A stretch of DNA of 64,000 nucleotides from assembly GCA_965649765.1 (NCBI GenBank), contig OZ287749.1:56234001-56298000 (forward strand), written 5' to 3'. Made by a program: the position numbers and the translations under genes. The notes under the pieces were generated by a model. The model was not told the origin of the DNA. It was given only the letters and a program-made list of their open reading frames with translations, and did not search any database. Source of the DNA: Bispira polyomma. Its lineage: Eukaryota. Positions 3,230 through 54,628 of the stretch are shown here, in pieces (position 1 is the first letter of the stretch; each line of letters opens with the position of its first letter).

Positions 3230-3472
3230 CTTGGTCATGTGTTTGTAGTTGTTGTTCTGGCCTCGTTCTCCCAGCCCACAGAGCCCCATGCCAGACATGG
3301 AAACTTCTCTTTGAAAGGACTTCTTGGTCCTGTGTTCTTTTACCAACAGTTCACAGCTCAATGTCTTGATAGATCTCTCCAGTGACTTAATAGCCAAGGA
3401 AAGCTGCTGAATATCCGAGGCTTGACACTTATCCTCATTCTCAAGGTCGGATTTTGCTGGACTATCTGCCAT
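3230..3472 (-). CDS. First coding exon (81 aa) of a probable tandem pLGIC paralog continuing beyond the left edge
   Basis: 'ASDIQQLSLAIKSLERSIKTL' and 'REVSMSGMG' match exons 1A/1B; phase-0 donor AAG|gtttgt; possible acceptor ttttcag ending at 3596. No downstream exon lies in the window. Confidence 0.78.
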
Positions 3473-8807: not shown

Positions 8808-9030
8808 TAGCCCCTCCAACAATTGCCACCTCCATGGCTTCAGCTTCATTCTCATCGATAGGGTTGACCTTTGTCTCTCTGCCTGACCAGCCATTCGAAT
8901 TGTCTCCTTTCTTCTTCTTCTTAGGGGTCGTCTCAAGAGACAGCTTCTTGTCCTCCTGTTGGGCCAGCTTGTCCACCTTCTTCTCGTGATCTCTCTGTTT
9001 CTTGGCAATGTGTCGCTTGTTGTAGCGAGA
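8797..9030 (-). CDS. pLGIC terminal exon (SRYNKRHIAKKQRDHEKK...VGGAMGD*, 77 aa)
   Basis: ttacag acceptor, open purine-rich phase-0 frame ending at TAA 8797-8799. The supplied ORF 8790..9056 is a different frame. Confidence 0.85.
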   Translation of the reverse strand, partial: SRYNKRHIAKKQRDHEKKVDKLAQQEDKKLSLETTPKKKKKGDNSNGWSGRETKVNPIDENEAEAMEVAIVGGAMGD

Positions 9031-22400: not shown

Positions 22401-25400
22401 ATACTAAAGTCCGACGAAGTGCTGGCCCTACAAATCATATATCAAAATAAACATCAATCTTAGCCTGACATTTCAGTATAAATGAAAACAGGTCTGAACT
22501 GTTAATTTTTTTAGATATCTTGAAAAATAAATCCAAGATGACCGAACATTTCAGAAAGGCCCTTAAACAAATAGCTTCTGAAGATTTATCTTAGTGAATT
22601 GGCTTTCGGAATGCATTTAAAATTGTTAAGTAGTCATTCCCCTTTAATATCTGTGAATATTCACCAAAGTTATAAATGTTTACTACTTTTATGAATTTTA
22701 ATTGCAACCCTATCCATTATTTTCGTTTCTACCTTAAATACTCTGTAACCAGGAAGCCGGAAATAGTAAAATCACTCCATATACTCACTTGGTACAACAC
22801 AGGTATTGATAACTTCTTTTTTTTTTTAAATGTTAAACTCTTCTTTAATGATTTAAGACATGTCTGGAAAAAGACATGTCTGGACTCCAAACAACCCTAT
22901 GGATTGGTCAAACTTACCATATTATCTAGAAAGCTTATCTTTTGTCATAAATGCTATTAGTTCGCAGATGTCTTGTCTCAAACTTTATGAGTTTAATCTA
23001 TACATCTATGTAGATGTATTATGCCAAAAACATGTATTTGAGCCTCTTTAGAGTCGTTTCAGAGAATCTTGAAACCCCCCTGAGTTCTACAAATGCCTCT
23101 CTCTTGCTAAAATAGAATGAAATCCAGTAGAAGATGTATGTCAAGTATATATAAATCCTATATATATCTTTCTGGTATAATACATGTACCATGTGAAGGC
23201 CCTCAAAACATTTTCTACTTAAAGTAATTTTCTACACCTTTTTCTAGTTTCTTATCTTTAAATAACTTGATTCTGCTTTTAAAAGTACTTTCATCTCTTA
23301 AAAGCCTAGAAACCCAAAAAAAGAGATAAATGGGTCAGGGTCAAGCAAACCCCTGCAGTGAGATTGCTGTCAGACCTATCCTCAATAGACCATAATAGAC
23401 CCTTGGTGATAAGGTTTTAATATACATCCTTACTCTGTAAGACCTGGCAACAAAGGAGCTCTAACAAAAGAAATAGGGCATAGTGGATAAGAAAAATGTC
23501 ATTACATCAATTCAAGCATTACTTCATTTGACAAATGTCTTGTCTGGGCTTTTCGGTGTTTGCTGTCATGTTACGAGTATAATCCACAATCAACCATACA
23601 TTGTATAACCTTCTAATGTCATGACATGCTGGGTTAAATTCATGGCATTGCTTTGCCTTAGTCCAGATAATGGACCAGTATGTCCAGTTAGATTTACCTT
23701 AGTTCATGTCTCCACTGTACAGAATAGTTACCACTTATTACATGTTTACCTTAGTCCATGTCTCCACAGTACTGTGTAGTTGCCACTCCTGTTCATCCAC
23801 AAATGACTGCAGGTTCAGACCACAGATTTCTTTGTCGTCTTCTATAAACTCCACCTCGTGTTCTCCATGATCAGAGGACACTGTAACTGTCAGATCCTAC
23901 AAGTAGTTCAAGTTGTAGCACACGTGAATATAATGGCTTGGGTAAGGAAGGTATGAGAGTGTCATTCTCTAATACTTATTACCTCAACACACCAAACAGG
24001 TTATGTTTTTTACCTTTGTCCATTAGTTGGTTTGTGTATTTATCAACAGTAGTGTAAAAAAACGACAACAGTCAAATATGTTTTGTTTTTTTTATTTTTG
24101 GACACTGTGCTGGCTTGACGGGGTAATGTACTATACTGACTTTCCTTCTAATTCATTATTGTGTGTATTTTTGTAGTCAAGAAGATGTTTAGTACTCATT
24201 TGAACAGAATCAACACATAATACATAGTTTTGACAAGCCTGTTGTGTACACAAATAATTTATTCTTGCCCCATTTTTTTAATTTATAGACATAATATATC
24301 CAGCCTGATTCGAAGAAGAAAGTAGTATGTTCAACATGTTTATAGTACGATGATTTATACAGGATATTAGATTTTTAAGACCTGTAGAAATGGTATGAAT
24401 GAGACAAATGAATGTCATATTATAGAAAATATTAAGGACTTACTGTATCTAAGGGATAACAACACTACAAGATTTACAAGGTATGAAATAAATTTTATGC
24501 TAAAATAATCTATGTGAAGATCAATTATGAATAGAATTGTACATTTAAGTTACCACCTCTTTTCTATACATACTTACTGTTGCTGTTATAATTAGTTAAT
24601 CTGTTTTATTGTCTGTTTGTCATTTATGTAGTTACGATGTACTGTGAGTACGAAAATAAACTATTATTATTATTATTATTAAACCTGATTTTCAGTTAAT
24701 TTGAATACTTGAACACTTTGTCGACAAGAGATGAGAAACAAGTAAGATATTATACAACATGACATCATTAACTGATACATAGTTAATTGTTGTTTTGGCA
24801 TAATGCAACATCATATATATGTTCAAATTTACAGGCCCAAGATAAAGAGCTTAACAAAATACTCAGTTTAAATTAGTAAGTATGCACAACAGGAAACTGA
24901 GTAAAAAAATATGAACACTCTTGGAACAAAAGTAAAAGAAGTCAGACCTAATTTGAAGTAAATAGACATACTATCCAATATATCTACATTCAATTTGAAG
25001 TAATACCACACTTCAGAATATTTTAGCCTACAAGCCGCCTCTTACTTTCAAACAGAGGATAATAAGTTCACCCAGTTGACAAAGTCAAATTACCCTAGCC
25101 GCTTTGAACGATGAACAGTTAAACGTTAAACAAATACACATTTAATTCTACTAAAGACCACCCGCAAGAGAGGCTGCAGCTGGGGGTAAAATATTTTTAG
25201 AAAAAGAATTCACATTTATTTTCTATACAGTAGTCTGTTGGTAAATGGATGTTGTCAAGATCTGTAGGGCATGATGCAGATTTGCTGAAAAACATCAACT
25301 CACAAAGTTGAAACTTAGAGAGAAATTATAGTTTATGGCATAAATAAGTACATGTATGTTAAGAGAAGCATCTCAATGTGATGACATTGTAATAATGGTT

Positions 25401-29172: not shown

Positions 29173-32100
29173 TTACATATCCATGGTGTCTGAATGTCTC
29201 AGATTTGATGAATGGTCTGACTGTGAGCTGTGATGCATAGATTTTACATAGTCATATTCCCCATAGATTTCCAGGGTTCTCAGGGTCAGCCATTGCTCAG
29301 TGGGTGGGTGTTGTTTTTATAATTCCTTTAGAGGGTTATTTTTTATCAGGCCCAGTCTGGTGTTGTTTTAATTTCTGAAAAGGGCACCACCATATAATAA
29401 ATATGTAAGGCCTTCATGGATTGGTTGGAAGCAATCGAATCGTCTAAACTGAGGAGTTGTCAGATTATTATTATCAGGCACAGCTGAGGGATGTCAGATT
29501 TGTCTGAGTATATAGTGGCCATATCAACGTTTGTGCATTTCACACTCTGTGCCTGTGTCTTGTTTAAATGACAAGTCTTGTTTAAGAGTTAGAATATAAA
29601 TATAGTCAAGCAGTCACCTTTATACAACACCTCCATCAGTGAATATTAACTAGGGTTTTATTGTCTTCTCAATATAATCACAAATTCAAAACCTAATTGA
29701 AGCACTTTTTGGGGGTGATTACTTAATAATCTTTACTGAGAGAATAGATATTTTCAAATATTTGTACATTGAGAATAAAAATGTAATATCAAAGATATAA
29801 ATTTATACAGAGAAAATCTTCTGGAACTCGACATTGGTTTTCTTTGACTTAATGGTTAGTCTTTTCTTAAGGAATTTACAAGTGCCTATCTATTCTTGGT
29901 GCATGCCGTTCTTGTATCTATTTAATGGCTTGGCGGCCACAACAATGAGTGTGACAGGTTATACAGACAGCCAATGTGCCTGTCTCTACAGTATTTGTTC
30001 CACCTTGAACTCCAAACACTCGAAATTGTGAAGACTAAGATTTCAAAAAGGGGATTATTTTATAAAAAGTGCTCAGAAAAGAGAGAAATCACAGTTCATT
30101 CTATCGTAGTCATGGTTTCAGCAACCACAAACAAGACAAACAAATAGACTCTTTCTTTAAATAGACCCACCAGAAGGGCTGGAACAAGGGGTATCTTAGT
30201 AACTGTCTCCTTATGATGGACAACCTACCATCTGAGATTAGATCACAAGAAACAAATTTCACTTTTAGCAGAAAATTTTTAAATTGCTTTCTTAGCCTAG
30301 GTTGTTTCATATTCCTGTGTTACATTATTCCTCACGAATTGGCTATGTCTTTTGCACTATCCTTTGGGACAATTCTAACTTACCAGTGTGTACAAATACC
30401 TGTAGCTTTGTATACTATAGTGCAAAAAGGCTAAACTCAAGGGAGATGTTGTCTACAATAAGCTGTCCCTCAGGGTTGGTATTGATAAACTGTCTTAGCT
30501 TGGTATTAATCCATATTCCAAAATGTGTGTGGGTCTGACCTTTTCACGGAAACTTTTCAAGCTTAATGCTGACTATGCACTTAAAACAAAGTTTAAGACT
30601 ACGACTTTTTATAAATATCAACGCTGGATAATTTTGTATCTCATGACAGCTACTTATTTGTTACATGTTTTAGACCAGCAACATACTACCAAAGTAGAGT
30701 GAAAGTTTTTTTTTATTGCATTTGTACAGGTACAATATCAGATAAATGGCTTCTGGGGGACCCTGAACATCTTAGGAATATAAATGACTTTCCTTTGTTA
30801 CTGCATTTGTGACAGAGCTTCAGGAGTTACAGAACACTGTTTTGTCCTTAAAAATCTGAATTTATGATATTTTAATACAAATACAGTGATCATTTTCTCC
30901 TTATCTGCAAATGCTTGTGGGGTATGAAGACTTTTATATGTATTATGTTAGACATTTTTGTATATGTTTTATAACATTCAATGAATATTTTATAATACTT
31001 GGGATTGTTCAAAGTTAAACGTTAGTTCTTACCAACAAAGATAATACAGACCTTTCCACAATATTCTCAATATCACATCAATGTCATTAATTCATGTATG
31101 CATATGACTAATGGATGTCCCAAGACTTGATTTTTGATGTCTTTATCTCCCTGACATATACTATACGTATTATAAATACCCTTCTTACCTGTGTATCAAA
31201 AGGAAACTGGTTCAGCTCCAGATACTCCAAGAAAGATCCCTTCACCCGTTTCTTCTCATAGACCATGGCCCTGCCCAATTCATCAAAGCTGACGGTATGC
31301 CAGGTTTCTTCCTTAATGTCTCCAAGGGCATTGTCAAGGGCCAGGTTAGCATTCCAGTACTCAGTCCAGTCCACATCATCCGGCTCCTTTATCCAATGAA
31401 AAGAAAAGTGCATGATTGATTCATTGATTGCTAGGGATTAACGTCGCTTTCAAGACATTGTATTGCTTATATCATGGCAGGCAGTTTTACAAGTGGCAGA
31501 AACCAGTGTATACCAGTTGGTCAAAATTCTAAACTGTAAATCACCAGACATCTGAAAGTAACTGCTAATTTTCCCACATAAAGCCGCATCTGTGATTGGA
31601 ACCGACATTGAGTGTGTTAACCGCTATGCCACCAACCCCCCTAACAAAGCGCAAAAAACTTGAGTCATTTGAAAGGAAGTGTACCTAACAATGGGAATAA
31701 ATGTATTTAATAATAAGTAAGTGACTAATAGGTACTACAGTTTTTTTGGGCGTTGGTGGTGTAATGCGACACACTTGACTCCCACCTCTGTCATCGTGGC
31801 TTTCAAAGCTTGGCCCTGGCATGTATTAGTTACTGCAGGTCACGGCATGACTGTTCAGTCATATACCTTTAAGGTAAACACTTGACAACAAATTGTTTAT
31901 TGTCTCATACAATGCAACCAAATACACCTCAACCAATATAATATCTTGTTTTTTACTGGGAGACTTATTCCCGCTTTTGTCATTGTGTGGGCATTAACAA
32001 ACTGAAAAGCGAAATGTACACATGAGAAATTAATGGAAAATATGCAGCCATATTAAATAATTTGTATTTTAGAAGGAAAAACAACTTTAATAATTTTTGG

Positions 32101-35100: not shown

Positions 35101-38100
35101 CGAAATGTTTCTGGAACGATACCATCCATTAATCAACGTCATGGAACGAACGCACCAGAGATCCTCACTTTCTACTACATTTTAAAACGTTTCCAAAATT
35201 AACACAACATGACACAAACATAGCTCTAGAACGTGTAGGTGTGACCAGGTCATAAGCAACAGCTGGCTATGTGGGAAAATACTATCAGCACTAAACATCT
35301 CTCTGCAAGGTCACTTCTTGCATTGCTTCAGAAGGTCAATATTAACTTCAACACATTCAAACACATGGTTATTGGAAGTCTGATGCTGTTTGTTCCCACA
35401 TAGAGTGCACCTCACATGCTTCCTCTATTAACCCTTCCACCTTTGCCTCTATCATTCCACCTTTTTGTAGTTTGGCTTTGGCATTTCTCTTAAAATTTGA
35501 GTACAGTTGTATATATATAGAGAGAGAGGTGAGGTTTTATAAATAAATGTATTTAAGCCACAGACTTTCACGTTCAAAGGTCAAAACCTCATGCACATCT
35601 CATACCTCAGATCAAAGCTCAGCTAAGCTATATCATATCTGACCTTCAGGTTTTACCTCCTTGACCTGAGGTCAAAACATAACATTTAGTCACATATTTG
35701 AAACGATTGTATTAGTAACTGCATGTCACAGCATGACAGTTCAGTCGTGCAAATATAGACCTTTACGGTAAAACACCTAACAACAAATTGTTTATTTGTA
35801 TCACCCAATAAAAACAAATACACCACAACTAATACCTTGTTATTTAATGAGGGACTTATTCCTGCCTTTATCAGTGTGTGGGCATTAACAAACTGGAAAG
35901 CAAAGTGTACACACATGGGAAACTAACCCACCCTCCTATGGGTTATGTGTATGTCTAGTAGAGTTGGTATTATCCTCCGTATTGTATTTTAATTGACCCT
36001 ACTATTGACATTTCTCTAAATATTAAATTTCCTAAAATTCATGTACAGTTGTGTATATAGAAGCAAGGTTTTATAAATAAATTTATCCCAAACAGCTTTT
36101 AGACTTTTTCCCTTCGAATGTCAAAAGCTCACACTCATCACTCATCAAATAGCCTTATATGATGTAAATATAAAAAGAAATACATTTAATAAGGCGAAAC
36201 TGTTGGGTAAATAAAAACACCAAACTGAGATCTAGGTCTTTGAAGAAAATGTACTTTTAATGTCCTGTTACTTATAAAATTGTAACTGGTTTGATGCACT
36301 GGTAGTATATCCTTCTACCGTTAATTATGGTAACTCAACTGCAGGTATTGGCAGTTCATTAAATCTATTTAATGAATGATAAATTCAAACTGCTAGTAAG
36401 CATTTATTTAACATGCTGAAAGGAATATAAATTTCTGTTTTAAAGTATCTGCCTAGATCTCATAAAAAACATGGCGTCTTCCAGACTGCAAATGGGAATA
36501 CATGGTGAGACAGCAAAGAATGCTAGATTGTCCCATTGTGTATAATTTGTCTTTAGATACTACTCTTAGTAAGAAGTATATATGTGTGTCCCTTCTTTTA
36601 GGTCAACTTTTATCAAGGACTGGATTATAAAAACAAAAACATCATTACCTTTAAATGCCCACAAGAGAGATATTTGATATAGTCAGTATACTAAGCTTGG
36701 GATGTATTTTTGATTTTGATTGATATTTTTATCAGTCTATTTACTCATCAGGTGCATATCAAGTGGTTGAACACCCAATTTAAATTCTTACTGCTTCCAA
36801 TAGATATATTGACCTGACCATATTGAATAATCGTAAACAAGAGTTGTCTTTTTAAAAAGACACAGGAGCATAGTGTGAAATATACTAACGTTGATATGAC
36901 CACTATATATACGCAGGCCCCTAAAGCTGTAAAAGATAACAATAAATCTGACACCGCTCAGTTTGCTTGGGTCAATTGCTTCCAACCAATCCATGAAGGC
37001 CTTGCATATTTCTAGGATGGCAGATAGGCATATGCCTACACAAGTACTAAACAGTGGCTTTTAAGCTTCAATGTTGATGACTGTGTAATACAGACAGATG
37101 CCCACTGATGGCGGTACTTACAGTGTCCTTCTTATTGTCCAGTCTGGGTTCCCTCCATCGGCCATGGATGAACACATCGGCAGCGTATTTCTCATGGATT
37201 GTGTCGATCTCACCAATTTTAAGGAACACCACTCGAACATAGACTGTACGCTGTAAGAACATAGAAGATAGAATATGGAATTTATTAAGGTTTTACATCA
37301 CTTTTAACAGATTAGGTCAACATTACGACTGCCAGATCAACTGTTAATTGCATTAATATTACCCAATTGATTTTATATTCATAGTTATTTAATAATAGTT
37401 ATTTACTTGTTATTTTTAATGTTAATAATTTATGTTCTCGAATTCAGTGGAAGAAAAGAAAGACATAATACTTACTGATATGATATTATTAATATGTTAT
37501 GGCAAAAATTGAATGGCAACAAATTACATATTATTTCTTTTCTTGTGAATGCAATCTTAAGTTTATAACTAACAAAGTATTCAATTGCAACAGAAACAAA
37601 ATGGCTGAAAATTTTAGGCATATTGCATGTAATGACTGATTTCGCAGATTGACTGTAAATTTAGGTATATTACTATATTAGGTACACAACACAGTGTTAG
37701 ATTAAAGTCACATCTGTTTTAACATGGCCTTTCAGTTTTAATAACAGGCAACATCCACTTTATAATAACAAAAATAGATTTGGTGTGACTTTTTATAATG
37801 CTATTCTTATACTGAGTACTAAATGTACATCTTCATTAAGACTTCAATGTATTGAATGGATAGTAAGCTAATATAAAATAAAGTGATGTATTATAGTTGA
37901 GCTTACATTACTACTGCTGCTAATTAATGGTAGACGGCTTATGATAACACCACAGCAAAAAGATAAACACATGATGTCACACTGATCAATATTACAAGAG
38001 ATTAGGGAAATTTACATTGACAATAAAAAAATCCATGTAATAATACAACAAAAATTAGTGTGAAATCAACTGATACATTCAGCTTGTATTTAAGACTTAT

Positions 38101-41100: not shown

Positions 41101-44100
41101 TTAATGGGTAGGGACTTGCACTTACGTTAGTATTATTGAGCTTAAGTTTTCAACAGGACTTCAAAGCTCAGGGATTCAGACATACACCAGTAAATGTTTG
41201 ATGGAGTAGGATTTAAGGTTAAGAATTATTGCTTAAAAAATCCTAAATCAAAGTTAAGTGTTAAGCTATATTTATGAAAGGTATTTAACTCACCATAATC
41301 TCATCATAATTGTACTTTCGGGCTAGTATTTAGAGAAGAGATCTGCGACATTTAAGCCACATGGATCAATTTGTTGGTTCTTCATAAGTTAGCATTCACT
41401 AAAAAGTTAAGCTGATTTTTTGTTTAACTTTACTAAAAAGAGTTAAGTTCTGTCAACTTTTGACCCAACTTGAATTCCAAACATTCAGGTAGATTTAGAT
41501 ATGTATAAAATTTTGTTGCTTTCTTTATTTCGTTTGCGATGATGACATCATAATTTGAAATATTAATAAATTAACCATAAATTGTACATTGTTTACATAG
41601 TCTTTATATTTCAATATATGATGATTGTTTTCACAGTTTTAAGATTATAACTTATGAAGAAAAGTGACTTTTTTAGTCAACCTCAAGGATCAACATCAAG
41701 TTTTGGTTAAACTTTTTGAATCAATATTTACAGATTACAAAAATGAATTTCACAATATATATCACAATAAAAAGCAAAACGAGACATATCAGCATACATT
41801 AAATTAAATATAAATTTAAAATCAACAAATTTAAAACTATAAATTTTGAGGGTTTTAGGTGCAACTTAGTTCAAACTTTATCTAGCTGGATCAAATTATT
41901 GTCTGCTGACACTACTTTTTGAATACCAATTTGATGCAAAAGACTGAGCCATTTTAAGCTTATCTTGGTCTATCATGGTGAATATGGGCCTAAATATCTA
42001 TTTCTACAAAAATATGTCCAAAAAAATCTGACTGCGCACTTCAGTTCCTTATTGAAAGCACTGTTAAAAAGCAAGGTGACAGTTCTAGGTTTTGCATTAT
42101 GTATCCAATATTAAGGTTTAAGCATCAAAATGATGATTTTTAGTATGTATGGCATCTGGAGAGAAGCAGTATTTTAACTCTAACATTCCATTTCAGCATT
42201 AAATTGAATTTTTATTAAAAACTTTACAATGATACAAATCCCACAAAATTCTTTCAGACACCTTGATTGCCAAACACAATTACCAAAACAGGAAAGGAGA
42301 AAAAACGAACAGAGAAAAAAATAGTTAAAGTAAGAAAGGTATTGAACAGAAAGGTATTCTCTTTTAATTATGTCAAAGAATTATCCCTGGTTAAACAATC
42401 ATTCTTTTCAGGGCAACAAACAGTTGCTTAAAAAGTGACTGATTGAATTGTATTATAAGAAGCTGAAAAAATATTTACCTGTTTGTTCAAATGCCGATAG
42501 CTAAATTTACCGAGTTTGCATAGTTCAAAGCTTAACAGTAAAATATTTGTGAATGTTTAGCTCAAAGTAGATTTGACAAAAAAATAGATCTATTAAGGAT
42601 AAAACTTGAAACTAGGGATAACTTTAATTGCAATTATATATATATATACGATATACGAAAAAAAGTTTTGTGTTAAAAACGGTTTTTGATTTGATTCTTA
42701 GAAATGTCTCTTATGTGGAGCTAGAGATGAGTAACTTAATTCATCACTAAATAATAAACTGAACAGCTGCTATAGCCATAGCATACACATTGAACACTAT
42801 TGTTCACTAAATTCAATTTGTTCTCTCAAAAACTACCATAAACATTTAGTTAAAATAAACACACAAAATGATATACATAACATCACTTCTACTGATTTAT
42901 CTTAACAAATACACTCACTGCAATATAGTTCACTATTTTAAGTAATGCACGCTTTTAATATACTGCCCTATACAACCGACTGACGCTTTTCCCCTGACTG
43001 ACATCCCTTCAACACAAGAGTACCTTCTTTATACATAGTTTTATTAAACTTTTTTATATACTGCCAAAATTTTCTTTTTCACAAATATTGTTTTTTTTTA
43101 TCTATCTTTCATCTAAATTGTAAATGGACATTGGAGCAAAACCTACAAAATCCTGCAGCTGAAATATGATACCCTATACTCATAGAGAGCTATAAACCAT
43201 GCAAAAGTACAATAAGCAGCACCTATCAGAATGCATGCCTCAAGAAGACACTAAAACAATACTGCACCTTTATGCCGTCTGAGTTTTCTATATCGGTGGA
43301 GCCCAGTCCGACCATGGAGTCGCTGTGTCGAGTCCGTTTCCGTGTCAAACTTACACTACTACCTACAGACAGTCCGGTGCATAGTGTTTTGACGGCTGTG
43401 TCCAGAGACTTTATTGCAGAGGTCAGGGTGGATATATCCGAACTTGTAGCCATGATGATTCAGAATTCACAAAGATGTTATGTACAGAGTAAAGTACTGT
43501 CACATACAATTCAATGTAGTTCAGATATTTAGTTTTCCTTAAGTCTGTTTATTGTTTATAATTTCTTATGGCATATGGCATATAGCCTCTAAAGTCAAGC
43601 TTGCTTGTCACACATTTACAAAATAATATATCAGTCCTCATATTGTAGTATGAATTCATCTACAATTCCAATCCCAAAGTAGAGTTTTGTACATGTATTA
43701 CTCCCAACACCAATATATGTTCTGTCTTCTGTATTCTCTACTCCTTCTCTATACTCCAAAGATCACATGATTTGTACAGTCCACATGATGTCATTTTTCC
43801 TCCCTATGTTATAATACATCAAACACACTATTTATTGTTTTAGTCCCCCAGCCCCCTTCCTTCATGTTGTCATGCTCTCAGACTGATGACAAACAGCAAT
43901 TTATCCAGACGTTTGTTAAACATAGGTAGTGTGTATGTGTGTGCACTTTGCATATTGGTATCTGAATCCAAAACAAGGAGTCCTTGGTTAGCATGAAACA
44001 ACATCAGTGGAACATCCACACTTGGTCCTCAGGACTGATGATTTGGAGGAGGAGGTGGAAGATTAAATGTATTAAATAAGTTTCCAGTCCAACTGCTAAT

Positions 44101-47100
44101 CTCTGGTCATATATAATAAAATTGTCAATCTCCACATGTGATATATTTCCTACTTTCTAGTAAAATATATGTATAATTTATATATGTGTAACTTGTTTCA
44201 GTCACGTATAATTTATTGTAAATACATATATATATATATATATTTGTAGAAAGTAGACAAGTAGAGATTGAAAATTTTACTGCAGTTATAGATATGCCGC
44301 TTGTTTCAGTTTACATGCTCGCATTCCATCTCTGCAATCACAGTTTTTTTTCAGAATTTCAGCCCAGGTGTGTATGTAAGAAAGTTGGTAGTAGACTTGC
44401 TAAAGCCAGATGCTTCGCAGAGCAAAAAAATCTGGACCAACTTTTGTACTCTGATTCCCTCCACCAGTAAACTGCCCTCTACTGCCCTCCACTGAGATGA
44501 CAAGACCTTTTATAAGTGATGTTAACCCCAAACTAAGCTAATAAAATCTGAACCAACTTTTGTACTCTGATTTCCTCCACTAGTGAACTGCCCTCTAGTA
44601 ATATGACACACGACGTATTATAAGTGATGTTTAATACAAACTAAGCTAATAAAAACCAAGAATAACTTTTTACAAAAACAAATACACTATATCCAAACAC
44701 CGGCGAAAATTGGATTCTTCAAAAGTTCAATCAAAAACAACTGCCATGTATAAAAAGGTAGACAAACTTATTAACCATGTTTTCTTTTTCTGTTGTCTAT
44801 AATTAATCATTAATTAATCTATCTCTTCTGTGTGTAGTGTTATGTTGTTATGTCCACCTACGGGTAGAGGTTTATAGAGGTTCCTTACATCCTGTGTCTT
44901 TTAGCATATGCCACACTTGTCATAGGGAAAATCCACATTGAGTGCACACACTACTACACAGTGCCATTTGTATTGATACCGATCACTGCCTCTTGCTATG
45001 TGAGTGAGTGGTGTGTGTGTGCGTCTTTAGTGTGTAGTATGCATATATGCACTAAGTCCATAGGTGACTCCTGACACCCCAACTACTTCTTAAAGGTCTA
45101 ACACATAATAACACATTCACTGATATAAAAGTGCCACGCCGCTTATTAGAGGAAAAGGCTATTGATCCAAACGCCTATTTGCTATAAATAAATGCTGTCA
45201 AATTTACCACATCCAGAGAGAGAGAGATTTCTTAATGAGCATTCTTTGAGTAAAAGCATTTACTCAGTTGAAATGGTGACAGATGGGAGAGTGGTAGCTG
45301 CTATATTCAATATGTAATATATATATATACAAATATACATATACATGGTCCAGTGCATACCATTTACATTGAGAACTTTACCCAGGTAGGGCAAAGCAAT
45401 ATGAGATGATGCCTCATTTCCCTATTTTGTAGGCAATAGAGGTTGGTATCTCTTTGGATTCAAATTGAACTATTTTGACAAAAAATGCCACTAATAATGA
45501 TTTTGCATTTAGTCCCAGACAAATGGTCAATTTGGACAAATTGGATGACTGCATAGTTATAGGGTTTAATGCTTTCAATATAGTTTCAATACATTTACTA
45601 ATACATGAAAGCGGTATAGGTTAGTTGGTCAGGATATTTCTCTATACTAAAACACCGGCCTTCAGCCAGCTAGTCAACTGCCAAAATTCCGACATGTATG
45701 ATAGAGCCCAGATTAGACCCTGACACAATAGAAGGAAGTGTAATCCTGCACCACTGTATGTTAAATACAGTTTAAAGGGGCAAATAGACCTGGCCGATTT
45801 TGCTTCCGGATCCGTCATCCGATGTCCGTTTCTGTCATCTGAATTTGCAGATTCACTACATCCCAAAACTTGGCCGATTTTTGTGATGTTCATGTTTTGA
45901 AAAAAAAATCAATGAAATAACGTCCTTAACCGATTTTCAGAATTCGGCTCCCGAAACTGAGGTGACATCCACCAGGTGTATGCTACTTCGATAATTTATT
46001 ATATTTCAATTCTTTCAGATGACGAAAACGGACATCGACGGATGACGGATTCGGAAGCACAATCGGACAGGTATATTCCCAAATTAAATGACAAGTAATC
46101 ATTGGATATTAATGTGTCATTCTAAATATCTTTCCCCATCAATAGCAACAAGTAAACAATAACCTTGGGTTTTTTACTGAAAAAGATGTAATCTAACATA
46201 ACATGACTAAAATTGTGATCCCTAATCTGTGTATGTATTATACAGTATAGTTACTAAACATAACACCGACTTCTGGTTTAAATACCTAAATGTACATGAT
46301 CATTATACATTTATTTATATATTATTAAATACTCAGTAGAGCACCTACCTTCGCGAATAAGTCACAATGCCAAAATTATGACCACTCCTCCACCTCATTT
46401 GATGTATAGGGGGTTTGTTTCTCATATATATACATATATATATAAATCTGCCGAAGAACAAACAAAAAAAAAGCAAACCAACAGACCAAAGGGCGAATTA
46501 CAAAACCTCAGGTAGGCGATACTTAATGGAATTTTGCAATTTGATTGTATGATCGTTTTTCATTAGTGTCAGAGAAAACCCCACATGAGATTAGATGTTA
46601 CCACAGAAACCATTTTATGTTTTATGTTTGGGGGCCAAAGAGTTAATGTCAACTTAAAAAACTTAACCCTATGTTATTCCTACATAATATATAATTCGAC
46701 CATCCCTTGTCCACAATAAACACGTTATTTACAAATGATGACCATCTAATCACCAAGAATCAATAAAGCATGTATATATTTGCTGTAATATTCTTGTTTG
46801 TCCAAACTCTACAGATGAACTATGATAACATCAGAGACACAGACGATATATCCTGTTGCTGTTTCCATTCATCCGTACACGTCATCCATACACATCAATG
46901 AGGCAAGATTATTTATTTTATGACATATATTCAGATTTTTTACAAGCTGTTTATTATTTTGTTCAGTATTTTAATCTAAACTTTGAATTTGATACCAAAT
47001 ACAAAACCAAATTGTTGAAGTTTGTATTTTATGTAACTTTCACCATCGATATGGTCACCCATAGTCTAATGGTTATGGAGTTGGTCTGATTATCAGAAGC

Positions 47101-50100
47101 TCCTGGGTTCTATTCCTGGTACCGGCTGCTAATTTCATTGGTTGGGTAACATCCTTGAGCAAGATGTGTACACACAGTTGCCTAGTGACTCGGATAAACA
47201 CTTAAAATTGCGGTCCTCTTTGACCTCGTCTATCCCCAGTTGCAAGATTAATACAGAGTATAAATCCGAATAAGATAAACCTTTAAAAGTTACTCTCTAA
47301 ACAAATTTTGTCGGACATGCTTAAAATACATATATGTGTATAAACAGTGTACAGTAATATATCAATGTTGATATGTACCATATGACTTATACGAGTAATT
47401 TTTTACGAGTGTATGGAAACAGGCCATTAGAGTAATCAGTTGCCTAATACACAGAACCCATCAGCTTTATTAGAACAGATGCTAAGTCTGTATATTGCCT
47501 GGAACTGTATTTGTAACCCAGTTCTGAATACATGGTCATTAATAACACCCTCATCTGCAGTAATGACTAGGTAAGTCCCAATGATTCCTTGTCACACGGA
47601 TTCACATGACATACAGGCCCTTAAAGCAAATGCCATACTCATTGTTGTTTCTTTTCCTGTACCCACGTGAAAACATTTTTTCTCTGGGGCCATGTCTATA
47701 TATATGCATCCAAGGTCACAAGCTTAAACTGTTGTTTGAACGCCAATACTACATAGTTTATTACATAAATCTCCTTATTCATGGGATTGTCCTATGCATG
47801 GTTACCATGCATTTTCAATGGAGCTTTTCAGTGATCAAGACACTCAAATATGTTTGTTATATTTTAAATACATTTGTACACAAAGATAGAGCATGGCTTA
47901 TTTTTGAGAATAGTGTTAGCTTAAGTTAGACACCCCAGACAATTCCTGGCCCTGGTCCCTAAATTCCCAGAAATATGAGTCAACACCTATATTCTAAATA
48001 AGACCATCAAGTACATATTCCTGCAGGGATTGGGCTCCAATGGGAATTCCAATGTCTTTTTGAACTGCTAGTATTATTAGTAGAGGTTATAAAACAAAAT
48101 TTTCTGAAAGTTCTATATGGGTCACATTATTTGTAATAAGGTAAACATTTACCCATAGTTTTAACTGTTTGTAATTTTTTACTAAATTGTTACNNNNNNN
48201 NNNNNNNNNNNNNNNNNNNNNNNNNNNNNNNNNNNNNNNNNNNNNNNNNNNNNNNNNNNNNNNNNNNNNNNNNNNNNNNNNNNNNNNNNNNNNNNNNNNN
48301 NNNNNNNNNNNNNNNNNNNNNNNNNNNNNNNNNNNNNNNNNNNNNNNNNNNNNNNNNNNNGCTGACATATGGAATTGGTTGGCTGACATATGGAAATCAG
48401 CACACAAACTGTCTTGCAGCAAGGATAATGGCCTTGCCTTTGGAAAAAGCAGAATTTAACAAGGGATATAACTAATGCACACAACTAATCTAATCCAAGT
48501 CTAATGAACAAATTTTGATATACTGGAACAACAAATTTTTTGACATTTTGCATTGACTCAAAACAGTTATTTTATTAAAACAGTTTTACTGGGTGGAAAA
48601 TGTGTCATTTGTATTTAGTGTTTCATCAATTTACCAGTGAAGTCCTTTGGGGGAAGCCGAGTAAATCATTCTTTATTACAAGCAGTTATTTTTGCCCGCA
48701 CGGTTTCCATGTGTATCATTGGTGGCAACTTATAGCCCAGTACCACCGGGCTTTACGTAAGCAGTCATTAAAAAAATCAATTTGCGTAGGGTTTGCGTGG
48801 TGTTGGCCGGAGCTGACATAATGTACATAAACATACATAAGCTGACGTGGGAGTTGACACACAAGCAATTTATAATTTCAAACTGAAATTTGGACATGCA
48901 AGCCAAGATTGATGCGGCAAGCCAAGTGATCAAAAATGTAGACTTGCGTACATCTATTTCTGAAAAGTGGTTTGACGTAGCCAAATGAGTGTTAACGTAA
49001 TATACATAATACAGCGTAATGATACATAGAAATTGATGTAGTATTATCTATATCAATGTAAAAAGTGTAGTCTTACAAAAGATTACGTAGAATATTGTAC
49101 TTATAACATCATAAATTATGTGATTTAATGTAATATTAGGGCCTTTAACGTGTCAATGTATGTAGTTTTATGTGTATGTGCATACAACAGCTTGCTAGTT
49201 TTCACAGGCATTGACGTACAAATGCGTGCATCTCTGCATAAGTGAACGCCTTTGACATAATAAAAAGTATAAATAAACTTCTGCTTGGGGCTTCCCACCT
49301 TTTGACTTTTGCATCAAATTTGTGCGACAGCCTTGCATGACTAACAGAGACTAAAGTAAATCCGGTGGTACTGGGATATTAAGGGTAAAATACTTTACGC
49401 ACTTTATGTTGGTTTACATGAGCTAACTAAGAAACATTAAACACTTTCTATAACATATTAGTCAAGTATAGTATTCATATATAATCACACACCGCCACCC
49501 CCACCCCCCACCCACACCCCCACCCATGAAGACATGGGTTATAGGATGACCATTTATAAACTTACACTGGGGGTAGGACTCAACGACAGATGGACCGCAA
49601 TATAAAGTGGTCACCTGAACCACTATGTGTGTTATTGTAATTATAGATACACACTGAGGTATACACAGTATATTACCAAATCTTATTCTAATACCAAGAG
49701 CACCGTTCTTGCTTATATTAAATGCACATCACACGTTCTTTCAAATAAAATATGTAGACACAGAAGGATTTATTATCCATGTCCTAAATAAGACTCAACT
49801 TGTACTGTATGCCTTGTTGTGAACACCACTGAACTACATGTATTACTAATATTTGATACAAACTTAAGTTCAGAATTTTTTTTAGAATTTTGGCATTTAG
49901 TTAGGTTTTAACATCACTTAGGTTATATTGTGTCTTAGGTCATATCACGATAGCCAGATTTAATGGTGAAGGAAGTCAGTGCTAAAGCAATGTAAACCAA
50001 CAGCCTATAGCAGGTACCTGACAAAGTTTCCCACCTGAAGGAAACAAACGGGATTGATTGGAAAACCTACTCGTGAGAGACCAGTGATTATGAATGAGAT

Positions 50101-53100
50101 GTTGTGGCTATGGTGGTCTAGAGTAAACCCTATCACCTCTCACCCTGCAGTCAAGGTTCAATTTTCAGTCATGACATGTAGTATGTGGGGAACGTTGGCA
50201 GTAGACTTGCTGAAAGTTGGTGATTTGCAGTGCAGCAAAACCTTGAGTAATTTCATGTTGGCAACTATTAAACTACCCTATATTATGCTAAGCAGTTGAA
50301 AGGGACAATAAACTTAAAATAAATGATAATCTAAAATCCTATGAGAAGTCATCTGTAAAACACTGTCTGGATTCAAATTAAGTCGAACTTTTTTTACTTT
50401 GACCGTTGACCCTCAACTTGGCAAATCTAAAAGGAAGTCACTGATATAATGAACTTACCATCTGTTTGCATTACTCTCGTCTTGTGACAGCTTACACATT
50501 ATGATTATGTTTACCATGTTGATGCACATTACCTCTGTAATGAGCTACAGGTAAACTAAATGTTAGTCATAGATGCTCCTAAAAAAAATTGTAAAGGCCC
50601 AAGGTAATTTTAAAATTGACAAACCATGCCACAAAATTCACAACATTTTTGTTTTCAGTATTGCTCGTAACAAACAACAGTTTCTTAACAGTTTATGTTG
50701 TGAATACTCTTTCAATAGACATTTCTTAACTCCAGATTGGGCCAGTAAACCTGATTAGGAGCCTTATGTTTTTTTTTATTAATTTCTTACTTATTGAAAA
50801 TTCCCCCCATCCTTACAATGGCCCTATGTGCTTTAGCTTTCCTCGTTTAGCTATGTAGAGTAGTTATTGACGTTTCACAGCCTGGATTATCCATCATATA
50901 ATAATCAGCATATCTTTTTGTGGAAATAATACATCCAGTAAATTGGCTCCCTTGTCTAACAATACCCACAATGCCAAGGGTGCACATGCTGAACTTTCTG
51001 AATTTCTGGATATATCGTTATGTTCTACAGGAAGGCATTGTAGAACACCCAAAAATAATAACTTGTAGGGTTTTTGGTTCACTGTTTACATGTGAACAAC
51101 ATCAACCAGTATGACACTTATGAGCAGTAGAGTGTTGACCTTCACCAAAGTAAATCAGTACCAAAAGGTGACAGACAAATCCTAAATCCGTCTTTCTTCT
51201 AACCTTTCTTCCTGTGCCCATCACCCTTCCATCAAATATCATGTAAATCATTTCCTTACAAACAGACAAACCAATTGACCAAATTGGTACAATCCTAATT
51301 ATTGGAGTGATCATTAAACAAGACTGAGCTGGCTCATTATGCACTCATATACAAAAATAGGGTTTTAGGCAAATGTACAGGAGTTTATACAAAGGCAACA
51401 CATTTGACTAATCATAACGTCTATATTGTACTACTACTCTAGTCACTTGTAAAATGCAACATTTTATAAATGATTTCATCAAAATGAAAATAATATTCAG
51501 CTGCTCTAGTCAAGCTTTTGCGGAGATGCAAATGTGTACACGTTATACCAAAGGATGTTATTCCGTAGGAGTATGTTATGCTGTTATGAGTCTTTACGAT
51601 TTGATTGCAATGAATCAGAGTGCTTTAAACATGAGATTAACAAAACATTGTTCAAAAAGTGAAAATGTGTAACTTTTTACAGGCTTCTTATCAGAGACGC
51701 TAGTTTTGAACATCATTACAACAATGCAGTAATTCTAAGGCTCAGTTAAAGTTGGTTCATTTGATGGCTATTTGTTTTTCTTTTGTCCCGAGATATTTAG
51801 CCTGATATTTACCATTTGAACAACAGCAATGTGTACTTGCATAATTATAGGAAATCTATGTGGAAAGTTATGTAGCATAGAAGTGAATTATTATTATTGT
51901 AGGTGTTGTTTTTTTTTTGTTTTTTTTTTTGCACATTGTATTTTCTGTCAACAGTTTATTCTAGGTTAGTCTATAAATACAGGGTAAACTTTTTCAGCAG
52001 TCTAATAATAGAATCGTAAACATATCATCAACTTATACTCCAATATTTTTTTAAAGCCTGGTCACACCTACACGTGCTATCGTCCCACAACGTAGCAAAG
52101 CAATATAACTTAAAACATGGTAGTTTTGTGTTTTGTGATGTCATTTTCATAAAATTGTGACGTTTTTGTGGCGTTTTGTGACGATGTTAGTACTTATACA
52201 TACGAAGCGGGGGCAAAAATCGAATGCTTTACTGGTAGGATATCAGTACCTACTACTACGTAGAGCTAATGTACTGCTACTTAAGGCTGCGTTCTGCTTC
52301 GTGCTGCTACCTAGTAAAATGCTCCAGGACGCATACTTCGAGTGGAGACAATCTCACTACTTACTGGGACTTCCTCGCTACCTACTACTATGTGGAGCTA
52401 CTTACTGATATGTCTCTGCTACTTTCGGAAACGTTCCGAGATGAACAAAAACAAATGTAGCATTCGGGGAGAACTGGGAGCTGTGACACGATTTATTAAA
52501 CAGTTTGAACAATCGTGACAGCAGACGAACCGAAGACGTTTCTGGAAAAATACCATCTGTCGCTCAAAATAATGATCCCCACTTTCTACTACGTTTTGAA
52601 AAGTTTATAAAATTAACACAACGTGACACAAACGTAGCTCTAGAATGTGTAGGTGTGACCAGGACATTAGCGGTGCACATTCTACGTATATCACGAATAT
52701 TTTCTGGTACACATGCCCTGGCATAGTCTACCCATAAAAAACGCATAACATTGCTCTCTCTCTCAGGGTTTTAGAAGAAAGCACATCTGTTCAAACTGGA
52801 CTACATAGCATTTTATTATTGTATTGTCATCCTTGATGACGACGGGGCTGTGATTTTTTCTACAGATCTACTTTTTGTGTTATCGTCAATGCTGCACTGT
52901 AAATGATGCTTGGCATCGATTAAAACTTTTTGTTATCATAACGTCACCATATCATTCACATAGGACATTTAAAACAAAACAAAACACTTCTGTAGACTGA
53001 GAGTTAACCAAGTTGTTAATCACAAATGCAGTTATCAAAGGCAACAGGTCATACTATATCGGAAGCTATAGCTATCTGGTAAACTATATAGCAAGCTATA

Positions 53101-53633
53101 GATATCTGGTATACTATATAGGAAGCTATAGATAACTGGTATACTAAATGGAAGGCTATAGATATCTGGTATACTATATAGGAAGCTATAGATATCTGGT
53201 AGACTAAATAGAAGGCTATAGATATCTGGTATATTATATATGAAGCTATAGATATCTGGTATACTAAAAAGAAGGCTATAGATATCTGGTATACTATATA
53301 GGAAGCAATAAATATCTGGTATACTATTGATATAAATCTATTATACTATTGGTATAAATTTGGCCATCACAATATCACTCATCCTGTTGAAAGCTGTGCA
53401 AGAACCCCAATCAACTCAAAATTCCAATTTAACTACAGCCCTACCTTGAACTTTTTGAAGCCCACTTCATCGGCGATAGTTCCAATACCTGACAGGGTAT
53501 TCTGCCTCTTCATCTGTTCTTTTCTCTTGTCTACCTTGTTCTGCACCGTATTCACACCTCCACTAGAATTGATCACTCCCTCCAGAGACTTGATGGCGGA
53601 GATGAGGGACTTGATCTCTTCTGATGTTGCCAT
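8797..53633 (-). CDS. Multi-exon gene: Cys-less (Pro-loop) pentameric ligand-gated ion channel subunit, ~453/454 aa, with two candidate alternative first coding exons
   Basis: Exons join in frame at canonical GT/AG sites. The product has pLGIC hallmarks: beta1-beta2 'VVFLKIGEIDT', 'RWREPRL', Pro-loop 'LELNQFPFDTQ', 'EQEW', pre-M1 'RRPGFFIWN', M2 'PNRLQLSFILLLTTVTFK', 'LPKISYLTYLDRY', four hydrophobic segments and a TAA stop at 8797-8799. Confidence 0.92.
9090..9523. mobile_element. Tc1/mariner-type MITE, paralog of 6312-6843, interrupted by a different SINE
   Basis: Colinear similarity to 6312-6843 including flanks; ends gtttcactg|ta. Confidence 0.75.
9217..9455 (-). mobile_element. Near full-length young tRNA-derived SINE
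   Basis: A box gccgagtggttag, B box gagttcgaatcc, (CAAATT)n tail, 13 bp TSD aactagctgttaa at 9204-9216 and 9456-9468. Confidence 0.9.
10027..10103 (-). CDS. pLGIC exon 8 (M4; (D)LIAFCILISLWVCFQVSFFVFVACM)
   Basis: tttcag acceptor, ATG|gttagt donor, 77 nt, phase 1/0; the split codon supplies the conserved Asp before M4. Confidence 0.87.
10511..10634 (-). CDS. pLGIC exon 7 (M3 and short acidic loop; DRYILISMLFLC...PNSIPEEA)
   Basis: ttgtag acceptor, CCG|gtaagt donor, 124 nt, phase 0/1. Confidence 0.9.
11159..11314 (-). CDS. pLGIC exon 6 (end of M1, M2, M2-M3 loop; LFICSLSFAIFAV...LPKISYLTYL, 52 aa)
   Basis: ttttag acceptor, TTG|gtaagt donor, 156 nt; M2 and LPxxSY motif. Confidence 0.94.
15495..15605 (-). 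CDS. pLGIC exon 5 (VTTKVFQNAKHKHPALSAACKASRRPGFFIWNVLFVM, 37 aa)
   Basis: tttcag acceptor, ATG|gtaagc donor, 111 nt; loop C, beta10, pre-M1 RR and the start of M1. Confidence 0.92.
16463..16541. repeat. Poly-C / poly-A / (AAAT)n simple repeat
   Basis: Direct reading of the sequence. Confidence 0.9.
17118..17705. mobile_element. ~590 bp non-autonomous TIR element (PIF/Harbinger-like)
   Basis: gctgtcacac near 17122 and gtgtgacagc at 17691-17700, TAA/TTA-type flanks, CpG-richer interior. Confidence 0.7.
17729..20926. repeat. Tandem segmental duplication, copy A (intron 4)
   Basis: Colinear near-identity with 20927-23790; duplicated spurious ORFs (17729/20927, 18620/21819, 19242/22860). Confidence 0.95.
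20531..20926. repeat. 65 bp minisatellite, 6 units, derived from the 3' end and splice donor of exon 4
   Basis: tgtataacc recurs at 20581, 20646, 20711, 20776, 20841 and 20906; the unit contains tttaccttagtccatgtctccacagtactgtgtagtt, as at 23745-23781. Confidence 0.95.
20927..23790. repeat. Tandem segmental duplication, copy B (ends inside exon 4)
   Basis: Matches copy A except for a TIR insertion (22348-22778) and absence of 19670-20123. Confidence 0.95.
22348..22778. mobile_element. 431 bp non-autonomous DNA transposon with ATAT TSD (Sola-like)
   Basis: Termini GGAGTGAgacTACTATT / AATAGTAaaaTCACTCC; atat at 22344-22347 and 22779-22782; empty site visible in copy A near 19145. Confidence 0.88.
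23750..23896 (-). CDS. pLGIC exon 4 (DLTVTVSSDH...FVDEQEWQLHSTVETWTK, 49 aa)
   Basis: ttgtag acceptor, AAG|gtaaac donor, 147 nt; continues FPFDTQ-DLTV and contains the conserved EW. Not in the ORF track; read manually. Confidence 0.92.
26558..26778 (-). mobile_element. tRNA-derived SINE, same family as 9217-9455, slightly 5' truncated
   Basis: Colinear similarity; 13 bp TSD tgcaaccgtaaca at 26545-26557 and 26779-26791. Confidence 0.9.
26795..27545 (-). mobile_element. L2/CR1-group LINE ORF2 C-terminal remnant
   Basis: 'LKLNPDKTEF', 'LGVTFDS', 'ICRSCYYHIRDI' and 'ALVSSSLDYCN' motifs with frameshifts. Confidence 0.85.
31189..31386 (-). CDS. pLGIC exon 3 (EPDDVDWTEYWN...LELNQFPFDTQ, 66 aa)
   Basis: aag acceptor after a pyrimidine tract, CAG|gtaaga donor, 198 nt; FPFD Pro-loop without cysteines. 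Confidence 0.93.
32340..32712 (+). mobile_element. Decayed Tc1-like transposase fragment
   Basis: 'RKSGR...SAQQ' and 'WKK..WTDETK' (first catalytic Asp motif), broken by frameshifts. Confidence 0.5.
33660..35480 (+). mobile_element. Decayed DIRS/Ngaro-type tyrosine-recombinase retrotransposon (RT plus YR remnants)
   Basis: RT motifs 'HRLILNL.YP', 'IAHAFRNL', 'WNYIGDL', 'LGLPINKNKLVPP'; YR motifs 'FAFFGFLRISNL' (~34570) and 'HGYWKSDAV' (~35365). Confidence 0.8.
34748..35252. mobile_element. PIF/Harbinger-like MITE nested in the YR remnant
   Basis: TIR cctggtcacacctacac / gtgtaggtgtgaccagg with TAA flanks; longer relative at 52055-52666. Confidence 0.85.
37122..37250 (-). CDS. pLGIC exon 2 (RTVYVRVVFLKIGEIDT...RWREPRLDNKKDT, 43 aa)
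   Basis: ttacag acceptor, gtaagt donor, 129 nt, phase 0/0; beta1-beta2 and WxDPRL-like motifs. Confidence 0.93.
40150..40380 (+). mobile_element. Degenerate SINE
   Basis: Core 'aagttggtagtagac..gct' and tail 'gatgttaaacccaaactaaac' shared with 44360-44545. Confidence 0.55.
43268..43453 (-). CDS. pLGIC candidate first coding exon 1A (MATSSDISTLTSAIKSLD...SDGIK, 62 aa)
   Basis: ATG at 43453; phase-0 donor AAG|gtgcag compatible with the exon at 37250; shares the AIKSL heptad motif with the other two N-terminal exons. Confidence 0.82.
44300..44655 (+). mobile_element. Degenerate SINE with a tandemly duplicated 3' part
   Basis: 44436-44546 is repeated at 44552-44654 (ccaacttttgtactctgatt...aaactaagctaataaaa). 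Confidence 0.6.
45777..46080. mobile_element. MITE with ~50 bp TIRs
   Basis: gcttccggatccgtcatccg..tgtccgttt is inverted as aaacggacatc..cggatgacggattcggaagc. Confidence 0.8.
47060..47285 (+). mobile_element. Degenerate tRNA-derived SINE (Meta/V-like core)
   Basis: B-box-like gggttctattcct, 'ccttgagcaaga' and 'tcggataa...taaa...ggtcc' core. Confidence 0.5.
48194..48360. other. Assembly gap (N run)
   Basis: 167 N bases. Confidence 1.
48736..49374. mobile_element. ~640 bp non-autonomous DNA transposon with CCCAG termini (CMC/EnSpm-like)
   Basis: TIR cccagtaccaccgg (48736-48749) / ccggtggtactggg (49361-49374); many internal (t)gacgt/tacgt motifs. Confidence 0.8.
52055..52666. mobile_element. 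PIF/Harbinger-like MITE, same family and orientation as 34748-35252
   Basis: Same TIRs, TAA/TTA flanks, colinear interior. Confidence 0.88.
53047..53327. repeat. 30 bp minisatellite (~9.5 units) with a 60 bp higher-order alternation
   Basis: gatatctggtatactatataggaagctata alternates with an ...ctaaa..gaaggctata variant. Confidence 0.95.
53445..53633 (-). CDS. pLGIC candidate first coding exon 1B (MATSEEIKSLISAIKSLE...GFKKFK, 63 aa)
   Basis: ATG at 53633 with an in-frame TAA upstream; acceptor ttttcag ends at 53659; phase-0 donor AAG|gtaggg; homologous to the exons at 43268 and 3230. Confidence 0.8.
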
Positions 53634-54628
53634 TGTTTTTTTTCTACCTCTTTAAGCTCTGAAAACAAATGTTACTGTTTTTACTTCTATGGCCTTGCAT
53701 TTTCTGTGGCTCACATCCAAATCATTAAACAAAATAATAGTCGGATAGGGGAAGATGTTCGTAATCAAAATTCAGTCATGACCAGGAGACAAACGTTAAG
53801 GAGGAAAAGCAAATGAATACTGAAACATTACCAATTCTAACACGATCAGTTGCCCAGGGACGCATGGTTCATCTGACTCCAAACAACAACAAAATGAAGT
53901 ACATACAAATGAAATATGTTGCATAGATAATCTTTAACATGAATCTGTGGTCCCTAAATATATTGTAAAAATGTATTGTGTTATCTCTAAAGTAATTAGT
54001 CATTCAGCTATTCAGATGTATACACACAAAAACTGTTTTAGTTTGAACAAATAAAAACAACAAAGTATTACTATAGACAGACAAAACAAATTCCAGAAGT
54101 TACCTTAACATGAATGAGTCCTCGCAAAATATCCTTTATTGAAAACTATATCTGGTCTAGTACCTTAACAAACGTGGATGACATTGTTGTTACATCTTAA
54201 CATATATCCCAGTATAATGTTATAACAAACACTTGTGTGACAGACAGAGTTTATTATTGGAAATACTTGTGACTTTTATGTTACATTTAGATTATGTCAC
54301 AAGGGAAATAATAATTGGGGTATAAATTATTGGGCAATCTCCAGTTATTGCCAAGATTTGAGTAGAGTATTCTAAACAAGGATTGGATATGGTTGGCACT
54401 GGTTCTAATTTAAGAGATACTTAAAGCTAGACTCATATGATGCTGCTTTGTGAATTGTTGAGCTTCACAGGCATTAAAAGTTGATTCATCCAAATAAAGA
54501 TTTACTTTTAATACTGCCAATATAAATAATTATTTATGAGTTGTGTCTGAAGAGGCAAAGATACCTTTATAAGTTAATGAATCATTGCTAGTTATTGTTG
54601 ACAATATTATCAAAAGCCCAGGGAAATA

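Follow-up and report, generated by a model that had tools for sequence, protein, structure and literature searches.

Organization of the locus

The window, i.e., the whole 64,000-nucleotide stretch of Bispira polyomma DNA analyzed here, carries on its minus strand a gene whose body consists of eight GT-AG exons. These exons were placed by homology and splice signals, run from 37250 to 8797, span 28 kb, and are open over 391 codons. Exon 2 (37122..37250) begins at the shared acceptor at 37250 and encodes β1 to β2 of a ligand-binding-type domain; exon 3 (31189..31386) ends in the Cys-less Pro-loop motif FPFD and is followed by exon 4 (23750..23896). Exon 5 (15495..15605) provides the pre-M1 arginines and the start of M1, exon 6 (11159..11314) the end of M1, M2, and the M2–M3 loop, exon 7 (10511..10634) M3 and an acidic M3–M4 loop, exon 8 (10027..10103) M4, and exon 9 (8797..9030) a basic C-terminal tail and the stop codon. 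A 31-bp minisatellite (8066-8741) lies directly behind this stop codon. The region 17728-23787 bears a recent local duplication of 92-96% identity, about 2.5 kb in pieces, inside which a 65-bp tandem array (20527-20929) is found in the intron that separates exon 4 from exon 5.

Upstream of the body lie two candidate N-terminal exons, likewise on the minus strand. The coding part of exon 1A (43268..43453) has 186 nt and 62 codons and ends in a weak phase-0 donor at 43268; the coding part of exon 1B (53445..53633) has 189 nt and 63 codons and ends in a phase-0 donor at 53445. A 30-bp array (53051-53327) is located 120 nt behind the 1B donor.

The gene is part of a cluster of three paralogues. 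Gene 2 is its sister (100/99 support, 75% identity in the body) and follows in tandem, 5.3 kb after the stop codon of the main gene: its N-terminal exon (3230..3472, minus strand) features the same helix as 1A and 1B, and its body starts at 15 and leaves the window. Gene 3 lies on the opposite strand about 55 kb before the window and has a longer N-exon, for which an orthologue exists in another assembly (P0306; 74% identity over 167 residues). The genome holds at least nine or ten Cys-less loci, five of them on C14. One paralogue (L032:2520-4843, G000:C11) is near-intronless, with frames of 360 and 193 codons separated by a single likely intron, and has a long N-tail lacking a hydrophobic core. 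A profile of the canonical transmembrane (TM) region gives 139 genome matches, several of them with few or no introns and one about 93 kb beyond the end of the window.

The channel body belongs to the Cys-less clade

The joined protein features these conserved residues of Table 1 in PMC4795631: the [F/Y]PxD loop, here FPxD without flanking cysteines, the β9 Trp, the pre-M1 Arg, a basic residue at M2 0′ (Arg), and the M2–M3 Pro. Together with four TM helices and a short M3–M4 loop, this resembles the Cys-less Pro-loop clade as presented in the accessible text of PMC4795631 and PMC9874803. Four hydrophobic segments are seen, and about 250 hydrophilic residues precede the first. The two positions of the Cys-loop cysteines, 13 residues apart, are occupied by Glu and Leu, in line with the polar first and hydrophobic second residue of the lophotrochozoan Cys-less clade, and the protein is therefore not a Cys-loop receptor in the strict sense. 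Unlike the clade as listed in PMC4795631, the M1 14′ kink proline is absent, there being no Pro inside M1 after the initial RRPG; according to the same text, this residue is 77% conserved across the pLGIC superfamily and not invariant.

Profile and fold comparisons agree with this assignment. Relatives match PF02931 above the cut-off, whereas single exons of the gene reach only E 0.03 and 5e-4. A profile of 59 relatives has its best match in ELIC (E 1e-26), and a structure model of the relative P0154, which stands in for the main-gene protein, adopts the pLGIC fold and matches GABA-A, GlyR, and ELIC (Foldseek E 2e-20 to GABA-A). The likeness of the main gene to ELIC/GLIC and to the GABA-A/glycine receptors thus lies in the sequence profile and, by way of P0154, in the fold. 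The nearest named proteins are annelid: Capitella with 56% identity over 354 residues and Helobdella with 60% over 266. Hence, the gene encodes an intact Cys-less (Pro-loop) pentameric channel subunit of the lophotrochozoan Cys-less clade, with a predicted channel function; the family tree was built without a Cys-loop outgroup. The clade occurs in metazoans and protists, with a lophotrochozoan distribution, and its ligand is given as unknown (Jaiteh, Taly and Henin 2016, PMC4795631; Johnson et al. 2023, PMC9874803, as far as these texts were accessible). The available parts of PMC4795631, PMC9874803, 10.1101/2025.06.15.659772, 10.1101/2025.04.02.646353, and PMC11085791 likewise describe it as of unknown function, and planarian members have been linked to mechanosensory neurons (as cited in PMC9874803).

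Two homologous N-terminal exons

Exon 1A ends in AAG|GTGCAG and exon 1B in AAG|GTAGGG. Both are in phase 0, and each reads in frame into the acceptor ...TTCTTACAG|CGT at 37250. The local alignment of 1A and 1B scores 71 against 23.7 ± 4.5 for shuffled sequences, a value reached by none of 5000 shuffles. The initial annotation had proposed two homologous exons of 62 and 63 codons with phase-0 AAG|GT donors and one acceptor, and the joined frames and the shuffles bear this out. The N-exon of gene 2 is related to both (local scores of 71 for 1A–1B, 70 for 1A–gene 2, and 50 for 1B–gene 2), and the motif L-x-x-AIKSL is common to all four N-exons, those of genes 2 and 3 included. A whole-genome search with 1A finds only 1A itself, the gene 2 N-exon (E 3.1), and 1B (E 6.3); with matches at E 3–6, the homology between 1A and 1B is real but modest.

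In-frame stops precede both start codons. The TAA at 53654-53652 before the ATG of 1B had been recognized previously and is confirmed; the TGA at 43462-43460, 9 nt before the ATG of 1A, had been missed. A frame of the type ATG...AG|GT[AG] with 55-75 codons occurs nowhere in 26,208 nt of the surrounding noncoding minus strand. Seven stretches surrounding the three genes hold no further helix exon that beats shuffled scores, and tblastn of the upstream 30 kb of four C14 paralogues finds none either, a weak search given the divergence of these paralogues. The flanks of the N-exons show no usable DNA similarity to one another. Exact look-ups of exon frames in search of a related genome found none of five, and a metagenome scan with 1B gave a single 40% match outside the helix, which was taken as chance.

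The two exons are strongly diverged and free of stops, as had been claimed: frames, ATGs, and donors are intact in both, and synonymous sites are near-saturated. Over 52 codons, pS is 0.73 and pN 0.48; over the first 18 codons, the values are 0.60 and 0.27. The GC content of the two exons is 0.49 and 0.46 compared with 0.31-0.36 in the introns, so both are GC-rich like the body. These observations support the earlier proposal of an old first-exon duplication, in which each copy appears to have been kept coding for most of the time since. In a simulation with an assumed indel rate, 14-18% of runs leave a dead exon intact after 0.1 substitutions per site, and 2-3% do so after 0.3. At 0.02-0.05 substitutions per site, 31-65% of runs remain intact; hence, a recent silencing of one exon is compatible with the data.

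Splice signals and exon usage

The splice signals of the two exons differ in quality, and all scores quoted here come from matrices built from 15-18 sites only. The terminal donor of 1A lies at the 72-77th percentile of background GT dinucleotides and scores lower than every one of the 15 true donors of the cluster in a leave-one-out comparison. It is outscored by a candidate internal phase-0 donor of 1A, AGT|GTAAGT (43349..43357, minus strand; 95th percentile), with the last exon base at 43355 in codon 33, use of which may give an N-terminus of 33 rather than 62 residues. GTA is codon 34 in both N-exons, which places an in-frame GT after codon 33 in each (43355 and 53535), the one in 1B being weaker; a conserved short splice form is possible, as is chance.

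Exon 1B has a candidate acceptor, TTTTCAG|, at 53658, 25 nt before the ATG, which scores at the 99.5th percentile with a 13-nt matrix and not above 0 with a 24-nt matrix. Behind it lies a 25-nt untranslated part (53634..53658, minus strand) containing the in-frame TAA, so that 1B looks like a second exon behind a noncoding leader. Given this acceptor, mutually exclusive splicing from one promoter is, on these signals, as plausible as the alternative promoters suggested in the initial annotation. Splicing of 1B to the acceptor at 43496 before 1A, the sole such acceptor read through, leads into a stop. Directly upstream of the 1A or 1B ATG, there is no CpG-rich window, and just upstream of 1A, there is no clean acceptor.

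Taken together, the locus probably represents one gene with two duplicated first coding exons, spliced as alternatives onto a single 391-residue body, and a front end of ~62 residues that is likely cytosolic (see below). That both exons are used, one per transcript, appears likely in itself, whether two promoters drive them or one leader precedes mutually exclusive exons. It is improbable, though worth keeping in mind, that only 1B is used at present, with 1A recently silenced, rarely used, or used only by way of its internal donor as a 33-residue N-terminus. The weak terminal donor, the stronger donor at 43355, the lack of a clean acceptor or CpG-rich start, and the survival of dead exons in the simulations at low divergence all fit such a reading, and a Liolophura paralogue features one N-exon in a long and a short form. 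Against it, 1A tops the region in GC content (equalled by 0.08% of 1302 intron windows) and stays exon-like as far as 43268, and its similarity to the gene 2 N-exon passes the internal donor and extends to residue 51. It is considerably less probable still that 1B was left behind, orphaned, as the first exon of a tandem paralogue whose body was deleted or lies in the unassembled gap, so that only 1A belongs to the body. Whole-gene duplication does occur here, as witnessed by the three-paralogue cluster, and no one contig bridges the N stretch between 1A and 1B. Yet tblastn finds no channel-body exons between 37250 and window position 144000: the initial claim that none lie between 1A and 1B is corroborated, and the absence extends about 90 kb upstream. 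Closing the gap at 48194-48360, as had been proposed, succeeded in part: DNA contigs enter the 167-N stretch by about 42 bases per side, to 48236 and 48320, and narrow it from both ends, but 83 of the 167 N remain uncovered and unbridged. The contigs stem from three runs of one study, which show even intron cover and no mismatches and hence behave as DNA, possibly from the source animal, and are not independent. As the body spans 28 kb and just 83 bases are uncovered, a second channel body hidden in the gap is unlikely. In addition, the splice signals of 1B are the better ones and its frame is intact, which would not be expected of an orphan. The orphaned-exon route may still be the origin of the two-exon layout.

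Alternative N-termini in relatives

The use of several N-termini on one channel body has precedent among RefSeq paralogues. RefSeq isoforms are automated annotations, as a rule built on RNA support. The 12 isoforms of a Ruditapes paralogue have 8 distinct N-termini, which are all exchanged at this same junction, immediately ahead of β1. Mercenaria has 5 in 7, Mya 6 in 7, and one Lineus gene 4 in 6; in another Lineus gene, of whose 11 isoforms 2 were compared, an insertion is the sole difference, and the three isoforms of Tubulanus share a single N-terminus. In 18 further isoform sets, comprising only the isoforms listed in 90% clusters, 12 have 2-5 N-termini and 6 have one. Overall, clams, scallops, Lingula, and Lineus show 2-8 N-termini at this junction. 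Most of these are not homologous to one another, but four in Ruditapes (0-2 of 500 shuffles) and three in Mercenaria are. The clams Ruditapes, Mercenaria, and Mya share orthologous sets of alternative N-exons (P0204-P0209, P0220, P0228, P0263-P0276), which indicates that individual alternative exons are conserved between genera.

As in the main gene, several N-termini of these paralogues switch at the junction before β1 and some are duplicates of each other. Unlike the main gene, the precedents fall into other subclades of the tree, and the mollusc N-exon family does not have the AIKSL helix. This points to an independent duplication in B. polyomma and to a recurrent multiplication of N-exons. 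The precedent raises the odds that both 1A and 1B are used and, at the same time, lowers the novelty of the layout. Among better-known systems, the main gene resembles the variable-first-exon genes—clustered protocadherins, UGT1, plectin, nNOS, and the glucocorticoid receptor (PMC3338513, citing Zhang, Haws and Wu 2004; accessible text)—in that its tandem 5′ exons are homologous and both fit a single constant acceptor in phase. It differs from them in having just two such exons, in that these encode short tails and not whole binding domains, and in the candidate acceptor upstream of 1B.

Composition of the N-terminal tails

The product of each N-exon contains an amphipathic helix in which hydrophobic residues recur in a 3-4 pattern; behind the helix lies a basic stretch rich in Ser and Thr. 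In 1B, the heptad helix covers about residues 5-22 and precedes a basic tail; 1A has the same type of amphipathic heptad helix. Of 55 N-tails, 17 show a helix-type pattern, and the model of P0154 shows a helix at residues 11-41 (pLDDT 82-94) and then a disordered linker. Motifs of the type [RK][RK]x[ST] occur 44 times in the 55 N-tails compared with 21 ± 4.5 after shuffling. This twofold excess, together with the missing disulfide, fits a cytosolic N-terminal domain. It is conceivable, and put forward tentatively, that the heptad helix is a coiled coil for assembly or gating and that the basic Ser/Thr-rich stretch carries phosphorylation and trafficking signals, in which case the choice of exon would tune regulation or partner choice and leave the pore unchanged.

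Signal peptide and membrane orientation

ELIC/GLIC and the GABA-A/glycine receptors have signal peptides and an extracellular ligand-binding domain. In contrast, the main-gene protein has no signal-peptide-like core and a long basic C-tail. The highest 11-residue hydropathy is 1.33 in 1A and 1.26 in 1B, which by hydropathy alone gives no such core; the initial annotation had named neither the channel family nor this missing signal peptide. Of 92 full-length relatives that begin with Met and have an N-terminus longer than 35 residues, only 2 reach a 10-mer hydrophobicity of ≥ 2.0 within residues 1-31, the cut-off being self-chosen and without a signal-peptide positive control.

The charges around the TM helices were compared in 60 relatives, 5 of which were dropped for want of an anchor or M4. 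In the remaining 55, the 20 residues after M4 have a K+R content of 0.34 per residue, and the M3–M4 loop (median 12 residues) has 0.13 K+R and 0.21 D+E. The net charge of this loop lies below that of the post-M4 tail in 52 of 54 rows. In a set of under 55% identity (26 of 32 scorable), 24 of 26 tails carry a net positive charge, and 22 of 26 loops are neutral or acidic. The reverse is seen in canonical receptors of the same genome: 15 loci, picked from 30 fetched loci for having M3 and the loop in one frame, show a D+E of 0.03 after M3. In the 7 loci that extend to M4, the loops measure 83-305 residues, and the tails, 0-15 residues long, contain 5 K/R in 57. The K+R density of the Cys-less M3–M4 loop (0.126) equals that of the canonical post-M3 region (0.127), which places the contrast between the two groups in the acids and the tails. 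Sequons in the M3–M4 loop are only weakly enriched (8 in 55 vs 4.3 expected; 36 of 1000 shuffles); those in the N-terminal domain fall below the composition expectation (0.25 vs 0.89 in 100 proteins), from which no direction is read.

By the positive-inside rule, basic flanks stay on the cytosolic side. The basic C-tail would thus be cytosolic and, with four helices, the N-terminal domain as well. These sequence statistics, drawn from mutually related proteins, tip the balance slightly toward a channel inserted with both its N- and C-terminus in the cytosol, opposite to Cys-loop receptors. To our knowledge, all characterized pLGICs have the usual orientation. The combination of two used exons with this usual orientation, in which M1 acts as an internal signal exporting the N-terminal domain and the variable tails are extracellular, is judged rather unlikely but deserves serious weight. 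It is what papers on the Cys-less clade assume in their accessible parts, and the comparison of the M1–M2 loop (K+R 0.154) with the M2–M3 loop (0.116) gives no support to inversion. The equal K+R density of the Cys-less and canonical loops and the slight sequon enrichment likewise count against inversion. It is harder to reconcile with a basic post-M4 tail and an acidic M3–M4 loop in nearly all members, with the lack of a Cys-loop disulfide and the kinase-type motifs in the N-tails, and with about 250 hydrophilic residues ahead of the first hydrophobic segment.

Neither alternative N-exons nor the N-terminal helix nor orientation is discussed in the accessible text of PMC4795631 or PMC9874803. 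Jaiteh et al. (PMC4795631) trimmed N-termini before alignment, and the term "signal peptide" is absent from the part of the text available. PMC13174522 ran signal-peptide prediction, the results of which may be in its supplement, and PMC7162841, as far as accessible, uses "inverted topology" for other proteins. A search of the literature on the Cys-less clade, with subscription journals outside its range, found no mention, in the texts as accessible, of N-exon alternatives, of a missing signal peptide, or of an inverted orientation.

Proposed mechanism and significance

In the favored reading—alternative first exons and both termini inside—one N-exon per transcript would be joined to the shared body at 37250, and the subunit would insert without a signal peptide. 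The N-terminal helix would then mediate assembly or couple to gating, the variable stretch behind it would supply kinase and sorting signals, and exon choice would alter regulation and not the pore. Extended to the family, a tentative picture, held at somewhat less than even chances, is that animal Cys-less pLGICs are upside-down: the "extracellular" domain would be cytosolic and gated by an intracellular signal, and the junction before β1 would be a hot spot for duplicated regulatory-tail exons. In such an arrangement, 1A and 1B could be two variants of a coiled-coil helix able to form a five-fold bundle above the vestibule.

Alternative first exons as such are commonplace, and automated annotations of paralogues already contain this layout implicitly. 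The weight of the finding lies in what the family as a whole hints at, namely an inverted channel whose cytosolic tails can be exchanged. Should this orientation prove right, Cys-less channels would escape screens in which transmitters are applied to the bath, and the question of their ligand would become testable by a simple topology assay and inside-out recordings. A natural isoform pair differing only in the N-tail would be a ready tool for the function of these tails.
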